A stretch of 64,000 bases of DNA from Pseudomonadota bacterium. Lineage in GTDB: Bacteria; Pseudomonadota; Alphaproteobacteria; UBA8366. The translations under genes and the position numbers were made by a program. This document shows positions 10,308 through 32,527 of the stretch, in pieces; positions within the stretch are counted from its first letter, which is position 1; each line of letters opens with the position of its first letter. Under the pieces are notes generated by a model that did not search any database, was not told where the DNA came from, and saw nothing but the letters and a program-made list of their open reading frames with translations. The stretch lies in assembly GCA_036337155.1 (NCBI GenBank), contig JAYZET010000010.1, positions 85,630 to 149,629 of the forward strand, in the 5' to 3' direction.

Positions 10308-11639
10308 GTGTTAGATCATTATACATACCTTAAATCAGACATATCCCGTCTATCTGGATCACGGATATCTGGGAAAGTTAAGGCGATACAGGGTATGCTG
10401 GTAGAAATCGGCGGTATCCAGTCATTCTTGTCTGTTGGAGATCGCTGTACCTTGGTTGGCAGACGTGGCGAAACGGTAGCTTGCGAGGTGGTAGGTTTTC
10501 GCGACGACCGCGCTCTTGCCATGCCATTCGGTGCTTTGGATGGAATCGGCATAGGGTCTTCTGCTGAAGTTGGTGAAAGTAATTCTGTTGCTTATCCGAG
10601 TTATTCTTGGTTGGGACGCGTGGTGGATGCGTTTGGTAAACCGCTCGATGGTAAAGGTACTCTCGCATTGGGCAAGCAGTCATACCCCGTAAAACGAATA
10701 GCGCCGCCGGCGCACGCGCGCGGTCGCGTCGCGGGGAAAATCGATCTCGGCATCAAATCTTTAAATGCCTTTGCCACATGCTGTCGTGGCCAAAGATTGG
10801 GAATTTTTTCCGCTTCGGGTGTAGGTAAATCGATCTTGTTGTCTATGCTTGCACGTTACTCCAAGGCTGACGTTGTCGTTATTGGACTCGTTGGAGAACG
10901 TGGCCGGGAAGTAAAAGAGTTTCTCGATCAAGAGCTTGGCGAAGAAGGTTTGATGAGATCGGTTTTGGTTGTGGCGACATCGGACGAATCACCACTAATG
11001 CGTCGACAAGCGGCTTATTTGACAATGACCGTTGCCGAATTTTTTCGTGACCAGGGCTTGGATGTTTTATGTTTAATGGATAGCGTCACCCGTTTTGCTA
11101 TGGCACAAAGAGAGATTGGTTTGTCGGCTGGAGAACCGCCTGCTAGCAAAGGCTATACGCCGACGGTTTTTTCTGAATTACCTAAATTACTGGAGAGGGC
11201 AGGCCCTGGAACAGGTGAGGGAACAATAACAGCGATGTTTGCTGTGCTCGTCGAAGGCGATGACCATAATGAGCCGATTTCGGATGCCGTACGAGGGATT
11301 GTGGACGGCCATATCGTTCTGGACCGAGCCATCGCGCAACGAAATAGATATCCTGCGATTAATGTCTTGCGTAGCGTTTCGCGCACCATGCCCGATTGCA
11401 ATACCGCGGCACAAAATTCAATTATCGATAAGGCACGTGCACTCATGGTGACTTACGAAGATATGGCCGAATTGATACGCCTTGGTGCTTATCGGAGCGG
11501 CAGTGACGTTGCCGTCGACGAAGCAATTCAATATCATGAAGCTCTAGAGGGGTTCCTTTCGCAAGCTAAGACGGAGGCGTTTACGCTTGATGAAAGCTAC
11601 GACCAACTTGGCGCGATCCTTGGGCTTTCTGCAACATGA
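10308..11639 (+). CDS. fliI: flagellum-specific type III secretion ATPase FliI
   Basis: 443 aa with Walker A SGVGKS, Walker B VLCLMDS and overall F1-beta-like pattern. GTG start. Confidence 0.9.
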   Translation: MLDHYTYLKSDISRLSGSRISGKVKAIQGMLVEIGGIQSFLSVGDRCTLVGRRGETVACEVVGFRDDRALAMPFGALDGIGIGSSAEVGESNSVAYPSYSWLGRVVDAFGKPLDGKGTLALGKQSYPVKRIAPPAHARGRVAGKIDLGIKSLNAFATCCRGQRLGIFSASGVGKSILLSMLARYSKADVVVIGLVGERGREVKEFLDQELGEEGLMRSVLVVATSDESPLMRRQAAYLTMTVAEFFRDQGLDVLCLMDSVTRFAMAQREIGLSAGEPPASKGYTPTVFSELPKLLERAGPGTGEGTITAMFAVLVEGDDHNEPISDAVRGIVDGHIVLDRAIAQRNRYPAINVLRSVSRTMPDCNTAAQNSIIDKARALMVTYEDMAELIRLGAYRSGSDVAVDEAIQYHEALEGFLSQAKTEAFTLDESYDQLGAILGLSAT

Positions 11640-12052
11640 GTGTTATCAAAAAGCTGATCCGGTTTTATAAGTTTGATCTCGATGAAAAACGGAGATCTCT
11701 CCATAAACTTGAGGAACAAGAAGCGCAGATACAAGCTGCGATTGACGCGACCGACCGCGCAGTTGAAGAAGAACAGGCATTCTCGCGAGGTGAAAATGAT
11801 TATGCTCCATACTATGGTGGGTATGCATCCAGGGTTCAGTTAGAGAGAGAGAAACTCGAAGACGCACTGGCCAAGGCAAATGAAGTTGTTGAGACGACCC
11901 GGGAAAGTGTCGTCCAAGCATTTGAGGAATTAAAGAAATATGAAATTACAAAAGATCGGCAAGAGCATCGCAGCTATCTTGAAAGCGAACGTCAAAATCA
12001 AATTGCCCTTGATGAAATTGCTCTGACCATGCATCAGCGAAAGGACAAATAG
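11636..12052 (+). CDS. fliJ: flagellar export protein FliJ
   Basis: 138-aa charged coiled-coil protein. It overlaps the fliI stop by 4 nt, the canonical fliI-fliJ arrangement. Confidence 0.65.
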   Translation: MSVIKKLIRFYKFDLDEKRRSLHKLEEQEAQIQAAIDATDRAVEEEQAFSRGENDYAPYYGGYASRVQLEREKLEDALAKANEVVETTRESVVQAFEELKKYEITKDRQEHRSYLESERQNQIALDEIALTMHQRKDK

Positions 12053-12062: not shown

Positions 12063-12473
12063 TTAAAAAGAGCTGTCGATAAAGGTGAATATTCCCGGGT
12101 TGCTCCATCTCGGTTGATTGTCAGTCAGCACAATCCGTCGCTTAGATGAATTTTCCGATTTGATTTCGATACGCGACCAGCGAGGTACCACCTCGTTGTT
12201 GATATCTCCTAAAAATTTATGGGCATAACCTTCGTAAGGTTCTTCGATTAGCGGATAGGACGCTTCTAGGTAAGTTTCGAACGCCCTCGAAAGAAGCAGC
12301 CACTTATCGGGTACATAGGTAAGGCTGACAAACAAGTCCGTTCCAATGGTTTTGCTCAAGCTAGTAATATAGTCAAGTTTAGAATTTGGGTTTGGTGCTG
12401 TTTCCAGCAAGGCGCGCAACGTTATGTCGTTGGGATTAATCGGAACGTTCATACGGTCAGTCCGGCTTTCCAT
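12063..12473 (-). CDS. QueF-like T-fold protein lacking the catalytic cysteine (function unknown)
   Basis: 136 aa. YITSLSKTIGTDLFVSLTYVPDKWLLLSRAFETYL aligns by eye with the QueF core [37 protein letters not shown], with Ser at the Cys position. The start overlaps the upstream gene by 25 nt. Confidence 0.45.
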   Translation of the reverse strand: MESRTDRMNVPINPNDITLRALLETAPNPNSKLDYITSLSKTIGTDLFVSLTYVPDKWLLLSRAFETYLEASYPLIEEPYEGYAHKFLGDINNEVVPRWSRIEIKSENSSKRRIVLTDNQPRWSNPGIFTFIDSSF

Positions 12474-13999
12474 TCGTGAACTTCTATTGTTGGGTTTAGT
12501 TCAAACGATGATGTTTGATGGAAATTTAGTGTCCCGGTCAACCCTAGAGCGGAAACAGTATTGGAGAAGATTGCACGAATATCATCGCGAATGGTATCCG
12601 CAAGCAGTTCACGTGTCCGGATCATGAGGTCGATGTTTTTGTCGGTGGCCAAACCGTCGAATTGGAACGGGCCAAGATTGCTAAATTCGACTTCAATCAC
12701 GAAGCGAGTATCTAGGTTCTTGTCGCCTTGATTATTTTCATCTTGCTCTTTCTCGCCGCGCACGAACAGCTTCAATTGCTGTAGGTCGGCTCCAACCAGA
12801 ATCGGTATGAGGTAGGACCGCCATTCCTGGCCCGACGGTTCACCTGCCAAGCGTTGCATCTCTCCGATATCGCGACTGAGACGTTCTACTAGGTTGTTTC
12901 CGGTGCGTTGCAGCGCTCGTAAAGTGTCTTCACCCATCCAGCGCCGCAAATCGCCAGTCATCATCGCCGAGAGAAAAAATAATATACCTGTCGTAAGCGA
13001 ACCGCGGGCTTGCGGTAATACTTGTTGGGTAAGATTATGGGCGGCAGTGGGTTCGACTGCTTGAAGCGCAATAATAGCGTTTCGCAAGGCTTCCCATTGA
13101 TGGGTCAGTAGAAGTGAAGTTTCTTCCACACTCTCTATGGGCCCAAGCGGTGTGCTTACTAACTCCATAACAAGTTTTGCACCGAGAGGTAATGCCGTGC
13201 GAGAATCGAGTTTAATTTCTCCTCGATTGGTCTGTACCACTGTTTGTCCGTTTTCCTTTGTTCCGGTCACTAAGCCCGTCAATGTTTCGATTCCAGGGGT
13301 TTGAGAGACTTGCCTGCCCGCGGAACCCTGCGGTGTAACTGTTAAAATTCGAACATTAAAAGTCATGCCGGCTAATAATTTGGGAGGTGAACTTGATGGC
13401 CTTGTGGACGACTTCGGTGATACAGAAGTCAAAGCAGTTGAGGAATTATCTCTGGCCAGGGTCGATCCGGCGTTCGTGCCCGCAACACCATTGGATGCCG
13501 TGGAATTGTTATTCGTTGGTCCATTAGTGGTGTCGATGCTTGTAACCGGCCCTGAGGTCGGGTCTAGGATCTTGGAGCCCGTTTTCGTATTGGTTGACGG
13601 CTGCCGTGTCGCCGTAGCAGAGATAATACTTCCCTGGGTTAGTGTCGATGTAACAGTGGGTTGGCTTTTGCTAGCAGGTAAACCGGTATTTCGATCGTGC
13701 GCTGATAGCGGAAATACCAAGACTTGTGGCCGTGTACCTCCATTCTGTATCTGAAGAGAGACTGTGGCACCATTAAGGAGATTAGCCGCTGTTTGTAGGA
13801 TCAATTCGCCAGAGTCGGTTTGCATTAGGAATTGTCCGGCCGCTGGCTTATTAATAATCGTACCGAGTAATGTCTGTCCTAGTTGGACGGCATTCTGTGG
13901 CAATGCAGACTGGATGATGGTTCCCGTTGCGCCACTTGAGGCAGAAAGGGTCTGTATGGAAAGAGTAGAGGGCGGTGTCGGCGTGACCGGCGTATTCAT
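12449..13999 (-). CDS. flagellar-operon protein with duplicated beta-rich module, S/T/N/P-rich linker and FliK-C-like (Flg_hook-like) C-terminus
   Basis: 516 aa. The internal repeat LLGTIINKPAAGQFLMQTDSGELILQTAANLLNGATVSLQI matches LTGLVTGTKENGQTVVQTNRGEIKLDSRTALPLGAKLVMELV. The C-terminal FVIEVEFSNLGPFQFDG..IDLMIRT..L.....GLTGTLNF mirrors the FliK block IRIQLKPAELGRVEVKLEV.. of 26027..27622. Confidence 0.55.
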   Translation of the reverse strand: MNTPVTPTPPSTLSIQTLSASSGATGTIIQSALPQNAVQLGQTLLGTIINKPAAGQFLMQTDSGELILQTAANLLNGATVSLQIQNGGTRPQVLVFPLSAHDRNTGLPASKSQPTVTSTLTQGSIISATATRQPSTNTKTGSKILDPTSGPVTSIDTTNGPTNNNSTASNGVAGTNAGSTLARDNSSTALTSVSPKSSTRPSSSPPKLLAGMTFNVRILTVTPQGSAGRQVSQTPGIETLTGLVTGTKENGQTVVQTNRGEIKLDSRTALPLGAKLVMELVSTPLGPIESVEETSLLLTHQWEALRNAIIALQAVEPTAAHNLTQQVLPQARGSLTTGILFFLSAMMTGDLRRWMGEDTLRALQRTGNNLVERLSRDIGEMQRLAGEPSGQEWRSYLIPILVGADLQQLKLFVRGEKEQDENNQGDKNLDTRFVIEVEFSNLGPFQFDGLATDKNIDLMIRTRELLADTIRDDIRAIFSNTVSALGLTGTLNFHQTSSFELNPTIEVHEWKAGLTV

Positions 14000-14033
14000 T
14001 TTTCACCGTCTTTTTGACGTTAATCTATGCGAG

Positions 14034-15110
14034 TTAGTTAGATTCTGTTGGCGTAAGCTTCTCTATTAAAGCGTGTTCTTCATTGTGTGATTGATCGATT
14101 ACTCCATGCTGATCCTTGGGGCGGTTTTCTTCGGTGGCCCGGTTTGTAATTTTTTGCCCAGATTCCGAAGATTTAGAAGGTAATAGCAAGCGCGCTAGTG
14201 AAACTGCGTTTATAGGTCGAAGGCCGTTGACGATATTAGGCGTTGGGCTTACATCACAAAACGCTAGTGCGGAGGTATCTGCGGCTGCTAATACGCTACC
14301 AAGTCGGCGCACCATGTCGAGACAGCTTACTAACATTCGGGTAGGTGCAATGTCGATAAAAGCTGTCGCGATTTCGGACGCCTCGATGGGATCACGACCC
14401 GCCGAAAGCACCAAAATCGTCTCAACTGAAGCCGCTCTAGTAAATTCTATGAGTCGTCCCATGTCATCATGGTTGTAAGGATTAACCCCCGCTGTATCAA
14501 TTAGTACAAGGCCATCAGGATCGGTACCGTCTATAGCTTCTATTAGAGCCAATGGGTCGGGAGCTACCATCACTTCGAGGTTGAGGCGCGTTGCATATGA
14601 TTGCAGTTGCTCGATGCCTTGTACACGCACCGTATCTGTACTGATCAGGCGCACGGTGGCGCTGCCTGAAATTATCGCACGGGCTGCTAATTTGGCTATC
14701 GCAGAGGTTTTGCCGCCTCCGGGCGGACCGATCAGCATGATCGGTTGAGGTTGGCCACCGTTTTCCGGCAATGGCTGGAAATTGTAGTGGGTCTCGAGGG
14801 CACCTGCCAATGACATATTGGGGTCTGCGGAGGCTTGCGTTGCGGCCGAATTGAGTAATCGATCTGAAAGCTCAGGCGGTGTGCCGTGATCGTCTAGTGC
14901 ATTGCTGACCTTTTGGAGCATTTGAAAGGTGAGTGTGCGATCTTTTTCGGGTATATGGCGGTCCTCGGCATCCGACGCTACGGTTACGCGGACGCCTCGG
15001 GTTCCTTCATCTTCATGAGTTGCGACGATGATAGCTTCTGCGCCCATCTGCTCCCGGATAAGTTCCATCGCCTCTTGCATCGTTCGCGCCTGGATCGTCT
15101 TAAGCCTCAT
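14034..15110 (-). CDS. flhF: flagellar biosynthesis SRP-type GTPase FlhF
   Basis: 358 aa. N-terminal MRLKTIQARTMQEAMELIREQMG, G1 GPPGGGKTS, and G3 DTAG. Confidence 0.85.
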   Translation of the reverse strand: MRLKTIQARTMQEAMELIREQMGAEAIIVATHEDEGTRGVRVTVASDAEDRHIPEKDRTLTFQMLQKVSNALDDHGTPPELSDRLLNSAATQASADPNMSLAGALETHYNFQPLPENGGQPQPIMLIGPPGGGKTSAIAKLAARAIISGSATVRLISTDTVRVQGIEQLQSYATRLNLEVMVAPDPLALIEAIDGTDPDGLVLIDTAGVNPYNHDDMGRLIEFTRAASVETILVLSAGRDPIEASEIATAFIDIAPTRMLVSCLDMVRRLGSVLAAADTSALAFCDVSPTPNIVNGLRPINAVSLARLLLPSKSSESGQKITNRATEENRPKDQHGVIDQSHNEEHALIEKLTPTESN

Positions 15111-15142: not shown

Positions 15143-17278
15143 TTAAATTTGACCCAAGGTCTTTATTTTGGCTTTAGGATGTACCTCATTTTGCGACATC
15201 ACGACAGTTATTGGCCGGAAACGCTCGATTACGGAACGTACGAAGGGTCTAATTCCAGGGCTAACGAGAAGAATCGGTGTTTCACCCTGCATCGCATGAC
15301 GCTCGAGTATGGTCCGCACCGCGGTAATGAATTGCTGTAATTTGCTCGGTGCCATCGAGAGCTGCCGCTCATCCCCCTGACCAATAATTGCCTCTGCGAA
15401 AGATTGCTCCCATTCCGGTGAAAGAGTAACAAGAGGGATAAAGCCTTGCTCGTTAACGACGTCGTCTGAAAGTTGGCGCGCTAGTCTGGCGCGAACATGT
15501 TCTGTTATTTGTCCGATGTTCCGTGTGTAGCCGCACGCTTCAGATATCCCTTCAAGGATGGTTGAGAGATCTCGAATTGAGACACGTTCGTTAAGTAAAT
15601 TTTGCAACACCCTTTGGATTCCGCCCACGCTGATTTGGTTTGGGACCAAATCAGCGATCAGCTTTTGATGTCCGCTATCCAACTCGTCGAGCAGTTTTTG
15701 CGTCTCCGCAAATGATAGTAATTCTGACATGTTGTCGCGAACGATTTCGGTGAGATGAGTGGTGATAACCGTTGGTGCATCAACGACAGTAAATCCGCGG
15801 AACATTGCCTCTTCACGATGTTGCTCTCCAACCCACATTGCGGGAAGGCCGAATGTGGGTTCTACCGTCTCTTCGCCAGGCAGAGATATTTGCTCACCAC
15901 GAGGGTCCATGACGAGGAGGTTGTTAGGGCGCAATTCGCCTGCCCCCGCTTCGATTTCCTTCACACGTAGGATGTAGTTGTTTGGTGGCAGTTGCAGATT
16001 GTCTTGGATCCGCACGGCCGGCATAATGAAACCCATTTCCGTTGCAAGTTGCCGGCGCAGCGCCTTTATCTGTTCGGTAAGCCGGCGTTCGCTAGGATTA
16101 TTTATTAGTGATAAAAGGCCGTAACCAAGTTCGAGGCGTATATTGTCGATCTGCAACGCGGCACCAATTGGCTCTTCTGGTGCCGGCAGGTCTTGTTTGG
16201 CTTCTTCCGCCTGCGCTTCCTTTTCTTCTAATTGCCGTTGTTGAGTATGTAACGAATAAGCTGTTATCCCTGTAATGCCTCCAAGTACAAGAAACGGCAG
16301 GGCCGGTATCCCAGGCAGTATAGAGATGATGAGCAGCAAACCGGTGGCTAGAGTTAGTGCCATCGGGTAGTTCGTGAGTTGACCTAGTACCGCCTCGTCA
16401 GCAGCCCCTTGTACACCGGACCGCGTAACCAGCATGCCGGCGGCGGTTGAGACTATCAAGGCTGGAATCTGCGTTACCAAGCCATCACCGATTGTCAGAA
16501 GGGTGTAATTTTCAGCGGCGCTGCCGAGGCTCATATTTTGCTGCGCAGTGCCAATAATGATGCCACCTACTATATTGATAAAGGTGATTAGAAGCCCCGC
16601 GATAGCGTCGCCGCGGACGAACTTCGATGCACCGTCCATAGCGCCAAAGAAAGAATTTTCTTCCTCTAGTGAGCTGCGTCGTTTGCGGGCTTCATCTTCG
16701 CCGATCAGACCTGAGGAGAGGTCAGCATCAATCGCCATTTGCTTGCCTGGCATGGCGTCTAAGCTGAACCGTGCGGCTACTTCAGCGATGCGTCCAGCGC
16801 CCTTTGTAATGACAACGAAATTGACGATGACCAGGATCCCGAAGACAATGATGCCGATCACGTAGTTCCCGCCGACTACGAAATTTCCGAAGGCTTCGAT
16901 GACCCGTCCGGCGGCATTAGTTCCGGTATGGCCATCTGCTAAGATTAGACGCGTTGAAGCGAGATTCAGTGCTAATCGCAGCATCGTCGCGATGAGCAGA
17001 ATCGTGGGGAAGGTGTTCAGCTCAAGCGGGTTTCTAATAAACAAAACGGTCATCAGAATGATGACCGAAAAGGTAATTGAAATGGCGAGTGAAAAATCGA
17101 GCAGCCATGTAGGCATTGGTAAGAGCAGCACGACCAGGATTGCAATGACACCTAGCGCAAGCGCTATGTCGCCCCGCTTCATAAACTCGGGTATTTGGAA
17201 TCCAGGTCCGCCCCCATGACCTTCCACGGCTTTGGCGCTGACGGCCTCCGTACCCTGTTCGGGCGCCGCTTCGCTCAT
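15143..17278 (-). CDS. flhA: flagellar export apparatus protein FlhA
   Basis: 711 aa with an N-terminal polytopic membrane domain plus a cytoplasmic domain. Has the FHIPEP-type motifs VAARFSLDAMPGKQMAIDADL and GASKFVRGDA. Confidence 0.95.
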   Translation of the reverse strand: MSEAAPEQGTEAVSAKAVEGHGGGPGFQIPEFMKRGDIALALGVIAILVVLLLPMPTWLLDFSLAISITFSVIILMTVLFIRNPLELNTFPTILLIATMLRLALNLASTRLILADGHTGTNAAGRVIEAFGNFVVGGNYVIGIIVFGILVIVNFVVITKGAGRIAEVAARFSLDAMPGKQMAIDADLSSGLIGEDEARKRRSSLEEENSFFGAMDGASKFVRGDAIAGLLITFINIVGGIIIGTAQQNMSLGSAAENYTLLTIGDGLVTQIPALIVSTAAGMLVTRSGVQGAADEAVLGQLTNYPMALTLATGLLLIISILPGIPALPFLVLGGITGITAYSLHTQQRQLEEKEAQAEEAKQDLPAPEEPIGAALQIDNIRLELGYGLLSLINNPSERRLTEQIKALRRQLATEMGFIMPAVRIQDNLQLPPNNYILRVKEIEAGAGELRPNNLLVMDPRGEQISLPGEETVEPTFGLPAMWVGEQHREEAMFRGFTVVDAPTVITTHLTEIVRDNMSELLSFAETQKLLDELDSGHQKLIADLVPNQISVGGIQRVLQNLLNERVSIRDLSTILEGISEACGYTRNIGQITEHVRARLARQLSDDVVNEQGFIPLVTLSPEWEQSFAEAIIGQGDERQLSMAPSKLQQFITAVRTILERHAMQGETPILLVSPGIRPFVRSVIERFRPITVVMSQNEVHPKAKIKTLGQI

Positions 17279-17326: not shown

Positions 17327-18700
17327 TTAACCTTCACCCGGCATTGGAACTGCCATGCCTTCTTCGTTGTATTGTTTTAACTTGTTGCGCAGCGTTCGGA
17401 TCGATATGCCAAGAATGTTTGCAGCATGGGTTCTATTGCCAAGGCAATGCTGAAGTGTATCGATGATTAGGTCGCGTTCGACCTCGGCTACGGTTCGGCC
17501 GACTAATCCTCTGGTATTGGCGTCATTTTCTTCAACGGCTGTTGGATTTTCGTTATCCAAGACAGCTGCCGCTGCGGTCGCCGCAACTGAGGCGACTTCC
17601 TCGTTGCGGCTAAGAACAATTGCATCGGGTCCAATGGTGTCGCCCTGAGCCAAAAGTACTGCGCGATGCATTGTATTCTCGAGTTCTCGCACATTTCCCC
17701 GCCAACCATGGCTTTCTAGCGATGACATTGCTTTATCGCTGATTGGTAGGCGGTCAACCCCATTTGCATCTGCGTATTTTTCAACGAAGAAATTTGACAG
17801 CATGGGAATGTCTAAAGGACGCTCACGTAAGGAAGGCAGCTTTATCTCTATGACATTCAAACGGAAGAAGAGATCTTCGCGGAAATCGCCGTTTCTAACC
17901 GACTGCTCAAGGTTGCGGTTTGAGGTTGCGACAAGCCGCACGTCAATTTTAATGGGGTGTGTACCGCCGACCCTGTCAATTTCGCGTTCCTGGATTGCGC
18001 GCAGCAGTTTGGCTTGCAAACGAATATGCATTTCGCTTATCTCGTCTAGCAGCAAAGTTCCGCCATTTGCTTCTTCAAATTTACCTATACGTCGAGCGAT
18101 GGCACCAGTAAATGCCCCCTTTTCATGACCGAAAAGTTCCGATTCAAGAAGATTCTCAGGGATCGCCGCACAGTTAACGGCAACGAAATTGTTGGTCGAC
18201 CGCTTGCTCTTCGCGTGAATATAACGTGCCATTAACTCTTTGCCGGTACCCGAATTTCCAGTTACCAGAGCGGATGCGTCCGAAGGAGCAATTTTGTCTG
18301 CAAATTCTAATACTTTTTTCATCGCAGGATCAGCATGGATAATAGAATTGCTTTCCTGACTTACAGCTTCGAGAACTGCGGCAATGAGTTCCGGGTCGGG
18401 CGGCAATGGCACATATTCTTTGGCGCCCCCTTTTATAGCTTCGACGGCAGCATCGGCATCGTTTCCGATTCCGCACGCGACGATTGGGAGAATAATTCGT
18501 TCAGTCGAGAGTTGTTTAACCATGTCGCTAACATCTAAGCTGACGTCGACCATAGCGACTTCCGCGCCTTGACCCGAGCGCAATGCATTCATTGCATCTG
18601 ATATAGAGTTGACGTGCGCCACCTTTGCGCCTCGTGTTATAGCGATCTTACTGGCTTCAGTTATGTGGCCTTCCAGTCTGCCAACGATCAAAACTTTCAT
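17327..18700 (-). CDS. flbD: sigma-54-dependent flagellar transcriptional activator (FlbD-like) with degenerate receiver domain
   Basis: 457 aa. AAA+ Walker A GNSGTGKE, GAFTGA loop (EKGAFTGA), ESELFGHE, and a C-terminal Fis-type HTH. The receiver-like N-terminus has GR in place of the DD acidic pair and L in place of the conserved K-P lysine. Confidence 0.85.
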   Translation of the reverse strand: MKVLIVGRLEGHITEASKIAITRGAKVAHVNSISDAMNALRSGQGAEVAMVDVSLDVSDMVKQLSTERIILPIVACGIGNDADAAVEAIKGGAKEYVPLPPDPELIAAVLEAVSQESNSIIHADPAMKKVLEFADKIAPSDASALVTGNSGTGKELMARYIHAKSKRSTNNFVAVNCAAIPENLLESELFGHEKGAFTGAIARRIGKFEEANGGTLLLDEISEMHIRLQAKLLRAIQEREIDRVGGTHPIKIDVRLVATSNRNLEQSVRNGDFREDLFFRLNVIEIKLPSLRERPLDIPMLSNFFVEKYADANGVDRLPISDKAMSSLESHGWRGNVRELENTMHRAVLLAQGDTIGPDAIVLSRNEEVASVAATAAAAVLDNENPTAVEENDANTRGLVGRTVAEVERDLIIDTLQHCLGNRTHAANILGISIRTLRNKLKQYNEEGMAVPMPGEG

Positions 18701-18731: not shown

Positions 18732-19571
18732 TCAGCCGAAATATTCTATACGATGATCCGGTGGAAGGATCGTATTGAGCAGCATCTCGAGACGCCGCGG
18801 GTTTTCGTGGCGGCTAATCGAAGCAGCCGCCATGACGTGAATCTGATTAATAAGTGCTTCGTCGCTAGAGTTTCGCTCTAGTTTAGCGGCCAAGGGCGTG
18901 AAGACCATATTAGCCAATATCGCGCCGTAGAACGTAGTCAACAGGGCGACGGCCATACTTGGCCCGATCATACTCGGGTCGCTCAGATTTCCAAGCATTT
19001 GAACCAGGCCGACAAGTGTTCCAATCAAGCCCATAGCTGGCGAGATCTCTGCCGCCTTGCGAAGCACCCCAACCGTGCGGGCATGTCGACGCGCGGCGGC
19101 TTGCATTTCTCCGCGCATAATACGTTCGATCTCATCGCCTGTTGTGCCCTCAAGGAGCATCTTAAGACCTTTGTGGAGCATTGCTTCGTTTGTCAATCGA
19201 GGAATATAAGCTTCCATCGTGAGTAAACCTTTTCGGCGAGCGAGTTGTGCGAGTTGTAGCACATGCAATGCCGTACAAGACGGACTTCTCGCGTGGTAAA
19301 AAACCGCCGAAACGACAACGGAGAATGCAGTTCCGATATCGCGGAATGAATAGCAAGCTGTAGTAATGCCAAATGTGCCTCCGATCACGATGCAGATTGA
19401 AGGTAAGTCGATAAATGCGTAGGGGCTTCCGCCAAGGACAATCGCAGTAACTATGAGAGCGAAGGCACCGATTATACCAATGAGGGTAGCTAAATCGACG
19501 ATTGACCGCACGGAAGGTGCGCGAACCAATTCGGTCTCTTGGGGTAATTCGGGCTCGGCTTCGGTCGGCAT
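18732..19571 (-). CDS. motA: flagellar stator protein MotA (MotA/TolQ/ExbB family)
   Basis: 279 aa with four predicted TM segments and a C-terminal MGLIGTLVGLV..M proton-channel motif. It lies between fliN and flbD. Confidence 0.8.
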   Translation of the reverse strand: MPTEAEPELPQETELVRAPSVRSIVDLATLIGIIGAFALIVTAIVLGGSPYAFIDLPSICIVIGGTFGITTACYSFRDIGTAFSVVVSAVFYHARSPSCTALHVLQLAQLARRKGLLTMEAYIPRLTNEAMLHKGLKMLLEGTTGDEIERIMRGEMQAAARRHARTVGVLRKAAEISPAMGLIGTLVGLVQMLGNLSDPSMIGPSMAVALLTTFYGAILANMVFTPLAAKLERNSSDEALINQIHVMAAASISRHENPRRLEMLLNTILPPDHRIEYFG

Positions 19572-19599: not shown

Positions 19600-19965
19600 C
19601 TAATTTTGTTCTGATTTAATGATTTCTGTCATCGTTATGCCGAGCTTATTATCTACAACAACAACTTCACCGCGGGCCACCAGCCGATTGTTGACGTAAA
19701 TATCAATTGCTTCTCCGACCTTGCGATCGAGTTCTACGACTGCACCGCGGCCAAGCTTCAACAATTGACTGACCTGCATTGAGGCCTTTCCTAAGACGGC
19801 GGAAACCTGAACGGGGATATCATACACGGCTTCCAAATCTTGAGCGCCTTGCGGCAATCCCGCTTCGAGAACGTCCGACATGTCTAGATCGTTGTCCTCA
19901 TTTGTTTGAGACTCCGGCGTTTCGGTTTCGAGTTCGTTCAGTTCCAAATTATCATCATCGGCCAT
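19600..19965 (-). CDS. fliN: flagellar motor switch protein FliN
   Basis: 121 aa. SpoA domain IPVQVSAVLGKASMQVSQLLKLGRGAVVELD..VARGEVVVVDNKLGITMTEI, with an acidic N-terminus. Confidence 0.9.
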   Translation of the reverse strand: MADDDNLELNELETETPESQTNEDNDLDMSDVLEAGLPQGAQDLEAVYDIPVQVSAVLGKASMQVSQLLKLGRGAVVELDRKVGEAIDIYVNNRLVARGEVVVVDNKLGITMTEIIKSEQN

Positions 19966-19992: not shown

Positions 19993-20922
19993 TCATGTCG
20001 GTTCGGGCGACATCCCTGCTGCTGTCTCTTCTTGTAAGGATGAGGTATCGGCGTCGGTCTGCTTCACATCAGCGCTGGACCCATCAACTTTGTTGTTCTC
20101 CCCCTGGGGGTCCGTCGCTATATGGGGATCATTCAGTTTTGCAGTGTTCTCTTTCAGATCGGATCCGATCGATGTCTCGGGTTCTAGAGAATTTGTATTG
20201 ACCTCTTCAATTGAGGTGGGTTCGACGTTCTCTGGCCTTAGCGGTTCGGCCGAAATTTCTAGTTTGGGTGCTTCGCGGCGTGGGGTCATTTGGGCAATGG
20301 CATTGATTTCACGCCGTGTCGGTTCCAAAAGTCTATCCGCTTCGCCTTCACTCCATCTGATGCGGCAGTCTACGGGACCCAGAGATGTGTCTTCAGTAAC
20401 GTGCACTGCACCGCTAAACCCGATTTTACTTATTAAGTTGACCAGATTTCGCTCGACATCGAGTACCAAATCTTTGGCGACGAATACAGTGACCCTGGGT
20501 TCTTCCAAGATCCTAGAGAGGATATCGCCAACAAATGTTTCTATTTCCTTTGTTCCGACCGTTTGTATAAATTGCGGCAATAATTTTTCTGCGGCGGTGA
20601 TGGCAAGATCAATTGTCTCTCGCGCAATCAGTTCATTTGCCGAATGCTGTTGCTCATCCAGCCGGTTGAGCGTTGTGCCAACAACCTCCAGTGTCTTAGA
20701 CACCTTTTGTTCGATACTGTTCATCGTTTCCTGCCGGCCCGCTTGTAATCCGTCTTTATAAGCAACTTCGCGCGCTTCCTGCAGTTCCTCTTCGGAAAAT
20801 GTCGGTGATAAGTCTTCCTCTTCCTCTTGTCGGACGACTTCGACGTCTTCAGTGGTGCCGATCATGTCGAATGATTGTTCGAAGACGAAGGGGCGAATTT
20901 CTTTTTTGTGTCCTTGATTCAT
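19993..20922 (-). CDS. fliH: flagellar assembly protein FliH (FlbE-like) with about 100-aa acidic C-terminal extension
   Basis: 309 aa. The charged coiled-coil N-half and central FliH/YscL-like pattern, plus the position between fliF and fliN, support the call. The tail after about residue 205 is low-complexity and rich in E/P/S/T. Confidence 0.65.
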   Translation of the reverse strand: MNQGHKKEIRPFVFEQSFDMIGTTEDVEVVRQEEEEDLSPTFSEEELQEAREVAYKDGLQAGRQETMNSIEQKVSKTLEVVGTTLNRLDEQQHSANELIARETIDLAITAAEKLLPQFIQTVGTKEIETFVGDILSRILEEPRVTVFVAKDLVLDVERNLVNLISKIGFSGAVHVTEDTSLGPVDCRIRWSEGEADRLLEPTRREINAIAQMTPRREAPKLEISAEPLRPENVEPTSIEEVNTNSLEPETSIGSDLKENTAKLNDPHIATDPQGENNKVDGSSADVKQTDADTSSLQEETAAGMSPEPT

Positions 20923-21269
20923 TTATTTACCCCCCCTTTGACAGCGGTTTTGCCACCTCAACTGATTAGCTCTTTGCCAGGACTATCATTGAAGGCGATC
21001 TCGGCCTTTATGGACAGAACGTCCTTTATGTCGACGATCTCCGAATATTTAGGCACGTTCTTCTCCCGTGATATTCTTGAGGATGAGTTAGGTCGCTTCC
21101 GAGGTAGCGCTTAGGCCACCCGGCGCGGGTATTGTCCAATTAAATTCGGTGAACAGTTTTGTTGCATATCTGCCCCTCCTGACATGATCAAGTTGGCCAT
21201 ATTTTCGCGTCGGTTTAGGATGTGATAGTCACCATTAACGCGCATTAGTTAGGCTACTCCAACTTCCAG

Positions 21270-22970
21270 TTATTGCTCTTGATACATCCAGTTTCGAATA
21301 ATGGATACCGCTTCGTCCGGGTGTTTCTCGATGATTTCTCCGACCTTCCGTAAAGAAGAAGCTCGCACACGACCCTCAACTTGACCCATGTCGATAAGAG
21401 ATTCTTCTGGTTGCCCACCTGACATTGTGGGTATCATTGCACCTTCTGCTCCCATCATCGCATCGGGACCGCTGAGTTGTGCCATGTCTCCCGTCATGGT
21501 TTGCGGTGCCGTATCGGAAGGCAGCATCGGCGGCATACCTTCCATCCCGGGGGGCGGGGTCATTGCCTGCGGTGTAACCTCGAATACTTTTGCGATCAAC
21601 GGTCGAACTACAAGCAAGATGATCAGAACGCTCACGACCGCTAAGACAATGATCTCGACCATTCGCTGCAATTGGTCTGGGTCAAAACCACTAAGCAGCG
21701 TAGAACTAAAGTCATCGGCCCCGATGCCGATCGAAGCGCCGGCAAATCGCACGCTCACGATTTCGAGCTTGTCACCGCGAGAATCATCAATACCAAGGGC
21801 GGAGCGGATAATTCTTTCGTATTGCTGAAGTTGTTCGGGTGTTCGCGGAGTGAAAGTCTGCTTGCCATCCTCTCCAATGGCTTCGATGCCGTTTATGGCC
21901 ACCGCGACGGAAAGGCCAAGAATTGTTCCTGCTTCCTTTACTCTATTGATTATGCTCTTTGACACTTCAAAATTATTAGCTTCTTCTGTGCGTTGCGATT
22001 TGCTGGCGGTAGAACTTCCGCCACCCGCGCCGTCCGGAAGATTTGTCGCCACGGAAACATTGTCAGGGGATCCTTCGGCTGATTGACTGGATTCAGTCAC
22101 TGACTGCGAAGAGCGTAATACTTGCCCTTCTGGATCATAACGTTCTTCGCTGATAACTTCGCGTTGCGGGTCGACATCAGCGTAAACCTCCGCTCGAACA
22201 TTGCCGATGCCGACCATCGCCTCAAGCATTTGTTCAATTTTGCGTGCCAATCGGTTTTCGACCGAGAGCCGAAGTTCATCTGCCGTTAGACCCGAAATCC
22301 CAGCAGATTCGTCTTCCTCTCCGCCACGGGCGAGTAACGTGCCTCGATCGTCGACAATTGAAATACGAGTTATTTTTAGATTCGGAACCGCGGCGGCAAC
22401 AAGGTGTTGCACTGCCGCGACCTTTTTTCTATCGAGGCGTGCAGCGCCGCGCATTTTTAAAATAACAGAGGCGCTTGGCTCTTGCTGTTGGCGGCTAAAC
22501 AATTCTCGGCGGGGCAGCACGAGATGAACCCGTGCGCTTTTGACTGTGGCGATGCTGCTAATTGACCGACCTAGTTCCCCTTCCATCGCGCGTAAATTGT
22601 TGACGTTCTGTACAAAATTTGATGTACCTAGCCCTTGATCTTTGTCGAACAACTCATACCCAATGTTACCGCCAGCTGGCAGACCGCGCTCCGCCATTGC
22701 CATTCGGGCATTACCAACTTCGGTGGCCGGAACTAAAACTTGGGTTCCACCCGATGCCAACTCGCCCGTTATATTCAGGGATTGCAGTTCGTTAACGATT
22801 TGTGTCGCCTCAGCGGGGTCGAGGTCGCCATACAGAAGTGAAAGGCTAGGGGTCCATAGTCGGGTCGTAATGAAGATAAAAAACATCACAAGCCCACTTG
22901 AAACCGCACCCATCATGGCAAGTCGCGCACCGCCAAGATTTTTGATTGCATCGACCAGTGGGTTCATCAC
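21270..22970 (-). CDS. fliF: flagellar MS-ring protein FliF
   Basis: 566 aa with two TM segments flanking a YscJ/FliF periplasmic domain. C-terminal FliG-binding-type helix (GEIIEKHPDEAVSIIRNWM). Confidence 0.9.
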   Translation of the reverse strand: MMNPLVDAIKNLGGARLAMMGAVSSGLVMFFIFITTRLWTPSLSLLYGDLDPAEATQIVNELQSLNITGELASGGTQVLVPATEVGNARMAMAERGLPAGGNIGYELFDKDQGLGTSNFVQNVNNLRAMEGELGRSISSIATVKSARVHLVLPRRELFSRQQQEPSASVILKMRGAARLDRKKVAAVQHLVAAAVPNLKITRISIVDDRGTLLARGGEEDESAGISGLTADELRLSVENRLARKIEQMLEAMVGIGNVRAEVYADVDPQREVISEERYDPEGQVLRSSQSVTESSQSAEGSPDNVSVATNLPDGAGGGSSTASKSQRTEEANNFEVSKSIINRVKEAGTILGLSVAVAINGIEAIGEDGKQTFTPRTPEQLQQYERIIRSALGIDDSRGDKLEIVSVRFAGASIGIGADDFSSTLLSGFDPDQLQRMVEIIVLAVVSVLIILLVVRPLIAKVFEVTPQAMTPPPGMEGMPPMLPSDTAPQTMTGDMAQLSGPDAMMGAEGAMIPTMSGGQPEESLIDMGQVEGRVRASSLRKVGEIIEKHPDEAVSIIRNWMYQEQ

Positions 22971-26026: not shown

Positions 26027-27622
26027 TTAGACTTGTACGTTGATACGACCGTCTGAAGCCGCTGCTTCAGCGGCGAGCAATGCGGATTCTTCCGCACTTA
26101 GTTCATCCCCGTCCCCAGTATCCGAGGCTTTCTCCTTGTTGTCTCTTGGGGCCTGCCCCCGGTCGGCCATCTCTTGCTCGAATTTGCTACCTTCGCCGCG
26201 AAGGTTGAAGCTCAGGCTGTTCGAATCCGTATTAAGGCCAGCGTCCTGCAGAGCCTGGCGAAGTCCGGCTGCGTCACGCTGCAGCAAATCCAGCGTGTCG
26301 GACCGTTCGGCGCTTACCACCGCCATCGCCCGACCATCCTCGGTCACTTCGAGTTTCACTTCGACTCGCCCCAGCTCCGCTGGCTTCAATTGAATACGGA
26401 TGTGATCCGAACCCTGGCCGACAGCCTTCTTAATTTGTACGGCGACTTGACTGGTCACCTCTTGAGGCGGTACCGGCGGACGAGCAGGGCGGGGGGCCTG
26501 AGACTGCTGACTGCGCTGTGAAGATTGTCCGTTGTTGTTGGCGCCAGGTCCGCCAGCGATTGGATCCGCAATTGTTTGTCCTGTCTGGAGGCCCATATCA
26601 GCTCGTGGCGTCGTAACAGCGGTCATTTGCGTTTGTTGGATCGCTTGCGCCGGTAACAGTGGCGGCGCCATTTGTGGCTGAGGGGGCGGTCCCGCAGGAG
26701 GGTTTTGTGTTTGTCCGGCTTGAGGCTGTGTCGGTTGCGAACGCTCCTGCCTTCCGATGTTGCCATGGTTTGCCAAGGAAGGGCGAACCTCACCATCCAA
26801 ATCTTCTGCGGGAGTAGTAACGATCTCGGCGGACGGTTTCGCCGGTTTATCAGTTTGGGCCGCTAAGGCAACCCCGGCGGCGAGGCTACTGGTCGGCTGA
26901 GACATCATGTCTTCCTGTACCTTCGTCACTTGCACACCGGCCTTTTGATGGTTCGCTGTGCTGGAGACATTGCTTGATTGCGGCTGGCTAGTCGCGTAGC
27001 GGGATCTCGGCAGCTCCTCGAGTGTGACGGTTTCGTTAGGCTTAGCTCGTAATTGCGCAGTAGCGGTTCCTGCGTCTTGTGGGGTTTGGCGCATCAGTTG
27101 CGTATCCGAGGCACGTCGTGCTTCTGCGGCGTTGGCAGAACGGGTTTCGTCAACGCCATTTACTAGGTTTTGTGGGCCCAAGGCTAGCGATTCAGCGGGA
27201 TCGACAACGGTGACTTCTCCACTGTGACCTTTGTTATTTCGATTTCCCTTTGCGTTTTGTTGATACAGAAGTTCTTCTTCGTGGCCGTCCGTGGAGCCCT
27301 TAAATTGATTCTTGAGTTCGCGCGGCGTGCGAGTCGACTCAATCATAGCGGCGTCACCTTGCATTAGACCAAGGCCTTCGTATTTAAGATTATCTTCGCC
27401 CATCCTTGCTTCGTGGGCGACGGTTTGATCCTGCATGTTTAGGGTTTCGTCGAATTCGTCGTTGGAACCCATGTAAGCGACTTGTTTAACGCCTGTTGTC
27501 GAGAGTAGCTGGGAGAACAAATTGCTATTTGTGCTGAACGCAGAGTTCTTCGCGCCTTTATCAGCATCCATACTGTCTGCACCGATGAGACCGAATGGAT
27601 TGTCGATTGCTGAAAGCGTCAT
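26027..27622 (-). CDS. fliK: flagellar hook-length control protein FliK
   Basis: Pro/Gln-rich centre and a C-terminal Flg_hook block IRIQLKPAELGRVEVKLEVTEDGRAMAVVSAERSDTLDLLQRD. The track start at 27658 lies only 4 nt from the -12 element of the promoter at 27662..27677, so I use the next ATG (27622, MTLSAID..). Confidence 0.85.
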   Translation of the reverse strand: MTLSAIDNPFGLIGADSMDADKGAKNSAFSTNSNLFSQLLSTTGVKQVAYMGSNDEFDETLNMQDQTVAHEARMGEDNLKYEGLGLMQGDAAMIESTRTPRELKNQFKGSTDGHEEELLYQQNAKGNRNNKGHSGEVTVVDPAESLALGPQNLVNGVDETRSANAAEARRASDTQLMRQTPQDAGTATAQLRAKPNETVTLEELPRSRYATSQPQSSNVSSTANHQKAGVQVTKVQEDMMSQPTSSLAAGVALAAQTDKPAKPSAEIVTTPAEDLDGEVRPSLANHGNIGRQERSQPTQPQAGQTQNPPAGPPPQPQMAPPLLPAQAIQQTQMTAVTTPRADMGLQTGQTIADPIAGGPGANNNGQSSQRSQQSQAPRPARPPVPPQEVTSQVAVQIKKAVGQGSDHIRIQLKPAELGRVEVKLEVTEDGRAMAVVSAERSDTLDLLQRDAAGLRQALQDAGLNTDSNSLSFNLRGEGSKFEQEMADRGQAPRDNKEKASDTGDGDELSAEESALLAAEAAASDGRINVQV

Positions 27623-27661
27623 AGTCTGGTTTCCGGATACTATTGTTTGCACTGCCATAGC

Positions 27662-28870: not shown

Positions 28871-28977
28871 CATTACTTCCGTGCTACCGGTTTGCGGCGT
28901 GTTAATTCGGTGGGTAACGGAGGAATGGACCGAATTTTGCTCACATGCGGTTATGCAGTCAATGCCGGAGAATTGCC

Positions 28978-29808
28978 GTGTTCTATAAGACGCAAGTCGA
29001 GCGTTATCGCGAAATGGGCTTCGCTGTTTTGAAGAACGCATTTGAGCCAACTTTAGTTGAGAGTGTTTTCAACGAAGTTTGTGATGTGTTTCGTCCAATC
29101 TTAAAGTATCATGGCATCGTCTCGCCTGAAATTATCGGGGATGAATTTGAAGACGCTTTAGCAAAACTTTTCTGCCAAGACATGTCGGCATATTTGTCAA
29201 CGGCAAAGGCAGTTCAATTGACGCCTGGCCTCCATGCTCTTGGTGCTCATCCCACAATGATAAATCTGGTAAGATCCTTTGGGATTGCGCAACCGCTGAT
29301 TGCTGTTCGGCCCGTTGTTCATATTTTGTCGGATAAACTTCGTGTTAATCAAGGATATCACCGCACCCCTCCACATCAGGACTGGCGCAGCGTTCAGGGC
29401 AGCCTGGATTCTTTGGTCGTTTGGTTGCCATTAGTTTCAATCAATCGCGGCTTCGGTGCAATGGAGGTCATTCCGGGTAGCCATCTCGAAGGTTTGCTCG
29501 AGACTAGGCGTGATCCTTTTGGTAACGTAATTGATGCCTCATTAATCGATGGCAAACGTTTCGTGCCAGTTGAAGTGGACCCGGGCGATGCGATAGTATT
29601 TTCGATGTTTACTGTTCATCGCACGGGTACCGAACAACGTTCGGGTATTCGCTGGGCAGCAAGTTTTCGATATAACAATGCTGCCGCTCCAGATTATGTC
29701 TCTCACGGCTATCCCGATCCCTTTATCTATAAGTCGCAGGACGAATTATTAATTGACGGGTTTCCTACTTTAGAAGAGGTACGCGCCACTTTTTTAAAGC
29801 TGGACTAG
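28978..29808 (+). CDS. PhyH-family Fe(II)/2-oxoglutarate dioxygenase
   Basis: HQDW (H-x-D) and a distal TVHRT His, with the overall phytanoyl-CoA dioxygenase pattern. I prefer the GTG at 28978 (GGAG 8 nt upstream) over the track ATG at 28945. Confidence 0.65.
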   Translation: MFYKTQVERYREMGFAVLKNAFEPTLVESVFNEVCDVFRPILKYHGIVSPEIIGDEFEDALAKLFCQDMSAYLSTAKAVQLTPGLHALGAHPTMINLVRSFGIAQPLIAVRPVVHILSDKLRVNQGYHRTPPHQDWRSVQGSLDSLVVWLPLVSINRGFGAMEVIPGSHLEGLLETRRDPFGNVIDASLIDGKRFVPVEVDPGDAIVFSMFTVHRTGTEQRSGIRWAASFRYNNAAAPDYVSHGYPDPFIYKSQDELLIDGFPTLEEVRATFLKLD

Positions 29809-30539
29809 CAACCCATCTTGCGTGCAAGGTCGACGAAATCCAAAGCGATAATATCCCAGTCTTCTGTCGGTTCCAGGTCCGTTGTTTGCTCGGAGCCGTA
29901 TTCTTCGGGTCGCGCCACAAATGCAGTTTTAAGTCCACGAGCCCTAGCCGCAGCCAGATCGTCATTGTGTGCAGCGGTCATCATGACTTCAGATGGGATT
30001 AAGCCGAGCGCATCGCAACACCGGTCGTAGGTCTCCGGCATGGGTTTGTATTGGCGGACGACTTCTGCGCCAAGAATCACATCCCAAGGCAAGCCGCCGT
30101 GCTTTGCCATGTTAACTATAAGCGCGATATTTCCATTAGAATGGGTGCCTATGACATATCGGGATTTCAGCAGCGTCAACCCTTCTACTGAATCGGGCCA
30201 CGGGTCGAGGCGGTGCCAAAAGAGATTTAGATCGTCGAGTGCTTCTTTAGGAAGTTCGCCGAAACCATAGCGCGGTGCAATTTCTGCGAGATTCCTACGA
30301 TGTAGTACGTCAAGCTTAGTGAATGACATTTCACCGGTCCGGACCCGCTCCATTGAAGGTTGATAGAGGTTTCGCCAATCACGCGCGAAGCGGTCCCAAT
30401 CCGTGTCTGGCACGTTGTGTTGATGCGCAAATTCTCGTGTGAGACGGGCGATGCTGCCGCGCCAGTCGACGACAGTTCCGAAGACATCGAAAATTAAGGC
30501 TTTTATCTCCGTCGTCACACCATTCACTCCAAAGTACAA
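29805..30539 (-). CDS. HAD-superfamily hydrolase, haloacid dehalogenase type II-like
   Basis: 244 aa. N-terminal LIFDVFGTVVDW (DxxGT nucleophile motif) and a length typical of type II dehalogenase-like HADs. Confidence 0.7.
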   Translation of the reverse strand: MYFGVNGVTTEIKALIFDVFGTVVDWRGSIARLTREFAHQHNVPDTDWDRFARDWRNLYQPSMERVRTGEMSFTKLDVLHRRNLAEIAPRYGFGELPKEALDDLNLFWHRLDPWPDSVEGLTLLKSRYVIGTHSNGNIALIVNMAKHGGLPWDVILGAEVVRQYKPMPETYDRCCDALGLIPSEVMMTAAHNDDLAAARARGLKTAFVARPEEYGSEQTTDLEPTEDWDIIALDFVDLARKMGC

Positions 30540-30956
30540 GATTTTCGGAACCTATAGCGCAGTGGGTAAGCGCACACCAGAGCGCGGTACTTTGGGTTTG
30601 ATTAGGTGAATTTTTAAGCTTTTCGATCTGATATGCATTACGCAATCCCCGTTACATACGAAAGTTACCGTATGATCCGTCGTCATTTTGCCTGTCGAAA
30701 TGGTCGACAACTCGTCCAGAGTGATTAAAGAGAACTTAGATGCTGGTGGCTGGCTAAATCCGCAAAGATTTATTGCATGTAGCGTAGGACAGAGGATTTG
30801 GCAGTTTCAAGACCTGGTTCCAGATAGACCCTTCCTACGTAAGGCATACGAAAACCAGGCACGAGTGAACTCAATGAAAACTGATAATACCGCATCGTAA
30901 AATCGAAAATTTCCAAATTTCTGAAACGCTATAAATACAGATTGTTAGCTTTTAAT

Positions 30957-31865: not shown

Positions 31866-32527
31866 CAGATATTCCTCAACCGATCACTTGATATTTTGGA
31901 GGGTTTGGTAGCTGCTCCGGGAAAGACGGACTTGTCGGCCGCATCCCGCACCAGTAGTGCCCCGGCGCCGACGACACAGCCTGCACCAAGCGTAATGTTG
32001 TCCCTCAGCGTCGCATTGACCCCAATGAAGCAGTTGTCTCCAATGTTGACTGAACCCGAAATCACAGCATGGCTGGCGATAAAAACGTTGTTGCCGATTT
32101 GGGTGTGGTGGCCAACGTGATTGCCACTCCATAGAGTACAGTTCTCACCGATCGTCACATAAGGCTGGATCGTATTTTGCTCCATTACCATTGTGTTCGC
32201 TCTTGCTTCGTATCCTCGCCAAACCCAAGCCCGAGAAGATGTGTAACTCGCTAGATCAAACCCTTTAGCGCGGGCTTGCGCGACTTTGTTGGTTCGAAGT
32301 TTATTTACCCTTGTATAACCAATAGCCACAAACAGGCTAAAGTCATCTGGGGAATAGCTCTCCTCCAACTCTTCGAATGGTACGACAGGAAGCCCGAGAT
32401 GGGTTTCCCTATCCCGATGTTCATCGTCGACGGTGAAGGCGGATACGTCATAGTCACTGTCTTCGCAGAAGAGATAGTGAGCGACTTCAGCTATCTCGCC
32501 GATGCCAAATATGGCCAAACGTTTCAT
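31865..32527 (-). CDS. NeuD/PglD-family sugar N/O-acetyltransferase (left-handed beta-helix)
   Basis: 220 aa. N-terminal Rossmann-like LAIFGIGEIAEVAHYLF plus C-terminal hexapeptide repeats (IGDNCFIGVNATLRDNITLGAGCVVGAGALL). Confidence 0.75.
   Translation of the reverse strand: MKRLAIFGIGEIAEVAHYLFCEDSDYDVSAFTVDDEHRDRETHLGLPVVPFEELEESYSPDDFSLFVAIGYTRVNKLRTNKVAQARAKGFDLASYTSSRAWVWRGYEARANTMVMEQNTIQPYVTIGENCTLWSGNHVGHHTQIGNNVFIASHAVISGSVNIGDNCFIGVNATLRDNITLGAGCVVGAGALLVRDAADKSVFPGAATKPSKISSDRLRNI

Follow-up and report, generated by a model that had tools for sequence, protein, structure and literature searches.

An unnamed, conserved gene downstream of flhF and flhG in alphaproteobacterial flagellar operons

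A 64,000-nucleotide (nt) stretch of DNA (hereafter, the window) from a Pseudomonadota bacterium of the Alphaproteobacteria (GenBank assembly GCA_036337155.1, contig JAYZET010000010.1) encodes, directly after flhF in a flagellar operon, a protein of 516 amino acids (aa). We use X as the label of this open reading frame (ORF; 12449..13999, minus strand) and Y as the label of the 136-aa ORF that follows it. X is a real gene and a member of a large family of alphaproteobacterial flagellar clusters that has no name. Our comparison of related loci showed that the ancestral gene order is fliF-fliG-fliH-fliN-motA-flbD-flhA-flhF-flhG-X-Y, converging on fliJ-fliI, and that flhG was lost from the slot after flhF in the marine clade of the window. 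X is the fixed member of this operon and flhG the variable one. The comparison also showed that the X family is specific to alphaproteobacterial flagellar clusters encoding FlhF. An earlier note on this DNA had described X as a second FliK-C-like repeat protein encoded instead of flhG, and we discuss both parts of that description below.

Gene order and the loss of flhG

About 70 loci were examined, including 55 metagenome loci classified by tblastn. X follows flhA-flhF in every locus with visible flanks, in most cases with Y and then the convergent fliJ-fliI pair downstream of it. flhF and X are separated by a ParA/MinD-type flhG in about 30 loci (L001, L003 from Rhodocista pekingensis, L007, L012, L014, about 24 metagenome loci, and Azospirillum lipoferum 4B), and X is often translationally coupled to flhG where the latter is present. 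The annotated order in A. lipoferum 4B is FlhA, a 'GTPase', a 'MinD/ParA family protein', AZOLI_RS19710 (X), and AZOLI_RS19705 (Y), the last two being annotated as hypothetical proteins. flhF is followed directly by X, with no flhG, in nine distinct loci (the window, L005, L006, L008, L011, L018, L022, L025, and L013). Eight of them, all but L013, are close kin of the window with a C-terminal domain identity of at least 59%, and these flhG-less close relatives are labeled as Alphaproteobacteria UBA6544 or as 'Rickettsiales' metagenome-assembled genomes (MAGs). Because L013 is distant, its flhG loss was independent. No ParA/MinD gene was found within the 64-kb window by tblastn with the FlhG proteins of relatives, by a motif scan, or by Pfam searches of the ORFs at 21270-63544.

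A recent review stated that flhG is 'consistently' directly downstream of flhF and that the two are 'consistently encoded together' (2025; PMC12826062), while Rhodospirillum rubrum was the sole exception to flhF-flhG adjacency among 21 polar flagellates surveyed (PMC7064773). An flhF gene without an adjacent flhG is unusual, not unprecedented, in the literature. The earlier note considered the arrangement unlike any described; besides the precedent of R. rubrum, the arrangement with X is not rare but widespread in Rhodospirillales-type clusters, including those of Azospirillum.

It is true that flhG is missing after flhF here, as that note had stated, but 'instead' was the wrong word. X does not substitute for flhG, which it follows in about 30 loci; that it adjoins flhF here is an accident of deletion. 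One could still imagine that X took over the job of FlhG, i.e., limiting flagellar number or stimulating FlhF, within the flhG-less clade, given that the slot is empty in the window and eight other distinct loci and that the 64-kb window has no flhG. We regard such a takeover as very unlikely: X keeps the same architecture in the loci where it coexists with flhG, the alignment contains no X feature specific to the flhG-less clade, X has neither a P-loop nor ParA/MinD similarity, and flhG may lie elsewhere in the genome. A motif scan found no Walker A motif in X, in agreement with the statement of the earlier note that no P-loop is present, and ParA, CbiA, and AAA_31 of Pfam had no match in it. 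X is neither a homolog of FlhG nor its evolutionary positional replacement.

Operon layout and FlhF

According to the ORF list, Pfam, and NCBIfam, the minus strand of the window carries one long flagellar operon from fliF through Y. It consists of fliF (21270..22970), fliH (19993..20922), fliN (19600..19965), motA (18732..19571), a sigma-54 activator gene of the flbD type (17327..18700), flhA (15143..17278), flhF (14034..15110), X, and Y (12063..12473), and it converges on fliJ (11636..12052) and fliI (10308..11639) of the plus strand. flhA lies upstream of flhF in the same operon, and its FHIPEP domain is found at the orthologous position in relatives. X begins with ATG after a flhF-X spacer of 34 nt (14000..14033, minus strand), which is the site of flhG in relatives, and its end overlaps Y by 25 nt, so that X abuts or overlaps the genes on either side. 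A Shine-Dalgarno-like GGTGA precedes the ATG, and no promoter-like or terminator-like site above the shuffled expectation was found from flhF to Y. The start codon, the spacer sequence, and the domains of flhF uphold the earlier placing of a 516-aa ORF 34 nt after flhF, and the operon layout here and in the examined loci likewise upholds its reading as a flagellar-operon gene beside flhA and flhF.

The flhF product (358 aa) is an SRP-type GTPase, matching PF00448 (SRP54) with 72 bits (5e-20), above the cut-off, and TIGR03499 with 138.8 bits (3e-40), below the equivalog cut-off of 174. It has the SRP54-type NG domain with the G1-G3 motifs and the FlhF-specific N-terminal B domain. Its G1, G3, and G4 motifs read GPPGGGKT, DTAG, and SCLD, respectively. 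The G4 motif is S/T-x-L/T-D, not TKLD, in all alphaproteobacterial relatives, with or without FlhG (alignment A4), and the G3 motif varies among them (DTAG, DTMG, DSPG, or DTTS). A tie between the G4 change (SCLD for TKLD) and the loss of FlhG was rejected because relatives with FlhG also lack the lysine.

In L007, one gene call of 601 aa (positions 8199-10004 of a 2.08-Mb contig) covers both FlhF and FlhG. It may reflect a true FlhF-FlhG fusion or else a frameshift introduced by sequencing. The FlhF proteins of the FlhG-less clade have a C-terminal tail of 35-40 aa, which aligns with the linker of this L007 product.

The X family and its architecture

Sixty indexed homologs of X were found, none of which has a precomputed Pfam domain, and an exhaustive profile search with the C-terminal domain collected 3,309 cluster representatives at E ≤ 1e-3, 2,336 of them at E ≤ 1e-30. 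The family has no Pfam or NCBIfam model and its members are annotated 'hypothetical'; X itself had no Pfam or NCBIfam match at E ≤ 1. A literature search turned up no publication about a gene that follows flhG in Rhodospirillales-type bacteria.

The 156 full-length members share a common order of N-terminal peptide, barrel, spacer, barrel, and C-terminal domain. In the window (all coordinates on the minus strand), the N-terminal peptide (aa 1-22; 13934..13999) is uncharged and proline-rich according to counts per position in the full-length members, has a low AlphaFold2 confidence (predicted local distance difference test, pLDDT), and follows the family pattern M-[SNT]-T-x-V-P-P-P-P-P. It is followed by a first repeat module (aa 23-99; 13703..13933), a low-complexity spacer predicted to be disordered from its composition and pLDDT (aa 100-204; 13388..13702), a second repeat module (aa 205-287; 13139..13387), and a C-terminal domain (aa 288-516; 12452..13138), in which the alignment and AlphaFold2 place a helical bundle (aa 296-386) and then a beta-sheet with one helix. 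Both modules are modeled as small beta-barrels, the strands of the first spanning aa 24-98 with pLDDT of about 90. Within the C-terminal domain, a beta-beta-beta-alpha-beta unit (aa 430-495; 12515..12712) is a possible, unproven T3S4-like unit (hhalign P 0.087).

The duplication within X is real: the profile of aa 22-100 aligns with that of aa 205-288 at an hhalign probability of 97.3% (E 2.6e-11), and BLASTP of the two as single sequences gave an E value of 6e-6. The earlier note had reported a duplicated module in the form of a residue pattern; the duplication stands, but the literal pattern is not matched in X, and a relaxed form of it matches aa 55-84 and 251-280. Its low-complexity linker of S, T, N, and P was well described, as aa 100-210 (111 aa) consist to 71% of S/T/N/P/G/A. 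The spacer has pLDDT values of 31-50 except at aa 121-130 (79), and it contains a short conserved strand at aa 125-132 with an LTQGS motif. Across the full-length members the spacer is between 49 and 451 aa long (median 126), and it is this variation that accounts for the differences in protein length. Pfam scans of 31 homologs and of 10 extra-long members gave only chance-level matches and no extra domains.

The full-length AlphaFold2 model of X has a mean pLDDT of 70 (32-sequence alignment), with confident beta-barrels at aa 24-98 and 213-280 and a sheet-plus-helix unit at aa 393-495; the C-terminal 227 aa modeled alone gave a pLDDT of 78 and a predicted TM-score of 0.73. Modeling of this kind had been proposed as a check, and it yielded the barrels but no known fold: Foldseek found no PDB match at E < 1e-3 with either the full-length or the C-terminal model. 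Barrel 1 had IF1-like OB-fold matches with TM-scores of about 0.6. The C-terminal domain of the family is about 230 aa long, with 47% mean column identity in alignment A2 and with W393, P399, R432-F433, G443, Q446, and D448 invariant in the alignments (window numbering).

The NCBI annotation of a 189-kb MAG contig, whose FliK and C-terminal half of X are identical to those of the window, calls only the 277-aa C-terminal part (MEE2688326.1; 12449..13282, minus strand). In R. pekingensis, about 1.5 kb is left unannotated between flhG and a called X of 351 aa. Gene callers seem to truncate the family at the low-complexity spacer. We read X as 516 aa because all full-length homologs share its N-terminal half from the first Met onward. 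That only the 277-aa half is a gene, or that the locus is decaying as fliG is, would accord with the NCBI call and with the frameshifted remnant of fliG in the same operon. Given the conserved N-terminal half, the confident AlphaFold2 barrels formed by the repeat modules, the Shine-Dalgarno-like motif before the first ATG, and the agreement in length of all other flagellar genes of the operon with those of relatives, we find a miscall or decay scarcely credible.

The N-terminus of X is polar, uncharged, and predicted to be disordered; it is not a Sec-type signal, and no signal peptide was found. The first charged residue of X is at position 51, and the first 30 aa contain on average 1.0 charged residues in the X family versus 5.3 in FliK proteins from these lineages. 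The family has no transmembrane segment, the maximum Kyte-Doolittle hydropathy over 19 residues being 1.18.

The near-absence of cysteine is the most telling feature of the family. Cysteine makes up 0.016% of residues and is missing altogether from 164 of the 175 members, and the FliK family is similar (0.021%, none in 113 of the 120 members); FlgE, FlgD, and FliF of the window contain none. The cytoplasmic proteins from the same loci as X contain 0.47% (FlhF), 0.94% (FlhG), 0.66% (FlbD), 1.52% (FliI), and 0.45% (FliH), and Y contains 0.56%. The suggestion of the earlier note that X is possibly secreted fits this depletion, which X shares with FliK, insofar as composition can tell.

Relationship of X to FliK

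The window encodes a bona fide FliK (26027..27658, minus strand; PF02120, 3.7e-17), whose gene adjoins flgD and flgE, and its presence rules out X as the hook-length ruler. For comparison, this FliK has 277 homologs, and PF02120 was present in 120 of the 120 matches listed. The earlier note had aligned the C-terminus of X by eye with the Flg_hook block of this protein. BLASTP of X against the window FliK gave an E value of 1.4, which is not beyond chance. PF02120, the family proposed as a check, was matched neither by X nor by 31 homologs (hmmscan, E ≤ 1), nor by the 10 long members (E ≤ 0.1), and searches between hidden Markov models (HMMs) and sequences of the X and FliK families gave nothing in both directions. 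PDB sequence searches with the profile of full-length X and with that of the beta-alpha unit returned no FliK, YscP, or PscP chain, the latter profile giving 0 hits.

With hhalign, the X C-terminal domain aligned to the 120 FliK C-termini with a probability of 0.35% (21 sequences, P 0.17) or 0.65% (203 sequences, P 0.087). The top local alignment of the deeper comparison is the very block named in the earlier note, RFVIEVEFSNLGPFQF...ALGL..TGTLNF versus HIRIQLKPAELGRVEV...DAGL..SNSLSF; at P = 0.087, however, it is no evidence for FliK likeness at the level of sequence. On the structural side, Foldseek matched 5cuk, the SS/T3S4 domain of PscP, with a probability of 0.94-0.99, a TM-score of 0.48 on the target, and a root-mean-square deviation (rmsd) of 3.2-3.3 Å over 72 columns. 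The E value of 0.08-0.18 is below significance, and the location of the match in X was not reported; it was the sole compact, low-rmsd match noticed for either model. The UniRef name of the Rhodocista homolog is 'FliK'. The label 'FliK-C-like' is not borne out by any sequence test, and the resemblance of X to the FliK C-terminus, whose sequence-level significance is nil, is weakly supported by this one sub-threshold structural match.

X might even be a highly diverged FliK/YscP paralog, the T3S4 domain of which would engage FlhB and thereby change the export specificity at an additional checkpoint that comes earlier. The PscP match, the fact that the best hhalign alignment falls on corresponding structural elements, the spacer of variable length, the FliK-like lack of cysteine, and the UniRef name speak for this idea. 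We consider it doubtful, because PF02120 is unmatched in X and 41 other members, the hhalign probability stays at 0.35-0.65% with empty HMM-sequence searches, and no FliK, YscP, or PscP chain appeared in the PDB searches. Moreover, the C-terminal domain of about 230 aa includes a helical bundle that FliK lacks, the N-terminus of X is unlike that of FliK, and the gene is apart from the flgD, flgE, and fliK site.

The partner gene Y

Y relatives were taken from the X loci (e.g., L001:11421-11867, L012:9677-10078, and L013:9723-10109). The Y profile matched Bacillus subtilis QueF (4F8B) with an E value of 3e-4 over about 83 positions, with a gap at the catalytic Cys loop, and PF14489 was matched by eight of eight members (best 1.2e-5). 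The window copy scored 16.3 bits against a cut-off of 27.3 for PF14489 and 19.9 bits against a cut-off of 86.9 for TIGR03139. The E-x-K-S-x-K motif of QueF is not kept, and the window Y has zero cysteine, while many other residues are invariant in Y (YVPD, NE..PRW, and QP.W.N). Y is a small, acidic protein with an isoelectric point of 5.2. As judged from these comparisons, Y is QueF-like in its predicted fold only, with no catalytic Cys. We are not aware of a published flagellar operon that contains a dead fold of the queuosine pathway.

Possible function of X

The reading that we prefer, at somewhat less than an even chance, is that the flagellar type III apparatus exports X, which then works outside the cytoplasm as a spacer, tether, or ruler-like accessory. 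The two OB-like barrels of X are separated by a spacer of very variable length. The C-terminal alpha/beta domain may be a very diverged T3S4-type module, and Y, which is non-catalytic and translationally coupled, could be the cytoplasmic partner or chaperone of X. We read X as exported because it has no Sec signal or transmembrane segment, a polar disordered N-terminus, a FliK-like avoidance of cysteine, a variable spacer, a coupled acidic partner, and weak T3S4 signals.

Several points weigh against this reading. A link between X and FliK or T3S4 is absent by every sequence method used, and the PscP match is sub-threshold (E about 0.1, TM-score 0.48). The cysteine depletion is indirect, as low-complexity proteins can also be Cys-free. 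The other products of the early operon of X are cytoplasmic or inner-membrane proteins. FliK, FlgD, and an FlgJ-type rod-binding protein are present, leaving no known exported role vacant, and the N-termini of X and of FliK from the same lineages are unlike. Finally, Y follows X in most loci but is absent from L003, L014, L030, L044, and others.

The location of X argues instead for its main rival, in which X would stay in the cytoplasm as a scaffold or adaptor for FlhF(/FlhG)-dependent flagellar placement and the early basal body, the N-terminal peptide and barrels docking FlhF, FlhG, the C-ring, or the export gate, the spacer serving as a tether, and the C-terminal domain oligomerizing or binding the pole. 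The analogy to gammaproteobacterial FipA or HubP would then be one of role and not of sequence. X adjoins flhF or flhG in all loci with the upstream side visible and is often coupled to flhG, it belongs to an early operon with cytoplasmic components, its strongly conserved N-terminal peptide resembles a docking motif, and it has no signal peptide or transmembrane segment; low-complexity linkers are frequent in polar organizers, which counts in the same direction. However, cytoplasmic flagellar proteins encoded in these loci typically do contain cysteine, which the 175 members lack almost completely, X is unchanged in clades with or without FlhG and so is not tied to FlhG, and it is unlike any known landmark or adaptor. 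On balance we hold a scaffold possible but rather unlikely.

A bolder form of the export reading is that X is a second exported protein of the ruler or switch type, recognizable as FliK-like only by its fold, which would act at an earlier checkpoint (the gate, the rod, or the periplasm-spanning stage) of alphaproteobacterial flagella positioned by FlhF, with Y as a new kind of export chaperone. We think this improbable. If X were indeed exported and T3S4-like, a flagellar system would have a second ruler/switch-type protein.

Whichever reading applies, the inventory of flagellar genes is considered almost complete, yet X and Y form a two-gene module, conserved in thousands of alphaproteobacterial lineages including the tractable Azospirillum, that has no name and no family model. 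Their fixed place after flhF or flhG makes them prime candidates for a component still missing from the assembly of polar flagella in Rhodospirillales-type systems. The clade of the window and one distant lineage keep FlhF with no flhG next to it, and so offer natural test cases for the control of FlhF without its usual partner.

Other features of the window

A frameshifted remnant of fliG lies between fliF and fliH (20923..21269, minus strand). About 212 nt of it are 75% identical to the first approximately 100 codons of the L008 fliG, with stops and frameshifts, and the other approximately 700 nt are deleted; no other fliG was found within the 64-kb window. The arrangement of fliF, a 44-aa ORF, and fliH occurs in four independent assemblies (L071, L072, L075, and L076), which were reached via FliN, and this recurrence indicates that the remnant is real in this population. 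fliG is intact in the close relatives L006 and L008 and is called in two pieces in L005. Because fliG is essential, a copy is presumably encoded elsewhere.

Between the flagellar genes, a flagellin-modification island occupies 28945..48112. It encodes five large tetratricopeptide repeat (TPR) proteins, three with clear Glyco_transf_41-type domains (33195..35339, 35336..37513, and 44367..46196) and two with repeats only or a marginal GT9 match (38263..40032 and 46193..48112), as well as a PglD-like acetyltransferase (31865..32527), a DegT aminotransferase (39912..41189), WbqC (37497..38147), and PhyH and HAD enzymes. Two flagellin genes (41426..42265 and 42545..43372) are flanked by the modification genes, as are flbT/flaF.

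FliX (53417..53845, plus strand; PF10768, 1e-35) adjoins a DksA-type zinc-finger protein (53978..54406, plus strand). The idea that X-Y replaces FliX, the coupling factor of FlbD, was rejected since FliX is present. The window also encodes FlbT, FlaF, FlgN, the FlgJ-type rod-binding protein, FliK, and FlgD, so X-Y stands in for none of these. Caulobacter-type FlbD/FliX and FlbT/FlaF regulators are combined with FlhF in this system. Four minus-strand ORFs had no Pfam match at E ≤ 0.001 (30957..31865, 302 aa; 32840..33178, 112 aa; 58140..58634, 164 aa; 61741..62127, 128 aa); the two short ones among these overlap ORFs of the opposite strand and may not be genes.

Comparison with known systems

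X resembles FlhG (FleN/YlxH/MinD2) in sitting directly after flhF in the window. It differs in having no Walker A motif (KGGxGK[ST]) and no ParA/CbiA match, and most related loci encode X together with a genuine FlhG.

In Helicobacter, the gene downstream of flhG encodes FlgV (PMC10655999). This protein, as well as FipA (DUF2802) and HubP of Vibrio and Shewanella, is, as X is, lineage-specific and tied to the flhF/flhG neighborhood. FipA, HubP, and FlgV are membrane proteins, FlgV being a small one, whereas X has no transmembrane segment and no likeness to any Pfam family. Y shares the Y-[IV]-P-D motif with QueF, but it is encoded in a flagellar operon and not with queuosine genes.

Compared with FliK, YscP, and PscP, X contains elements that FliK lacks, namely two folded OB-like barrels and an approximately 90-aa helical bundle, and the N-terminus of X is uncharged and proline-rich. 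Its gene belongs to the flhA-flhF operon, while that of FliK is located with flgD and flgE, and a genuine FliK coexists with X in the window. What X has in common with these proteins is a disordered polar N-terminus with no signal peptide, a long low-complexity middle part whose length varies widely, a globular C-terminal part with a beta-beta-beta-alpha-beta unit, which in X is predicted, and essentially no cysteine.

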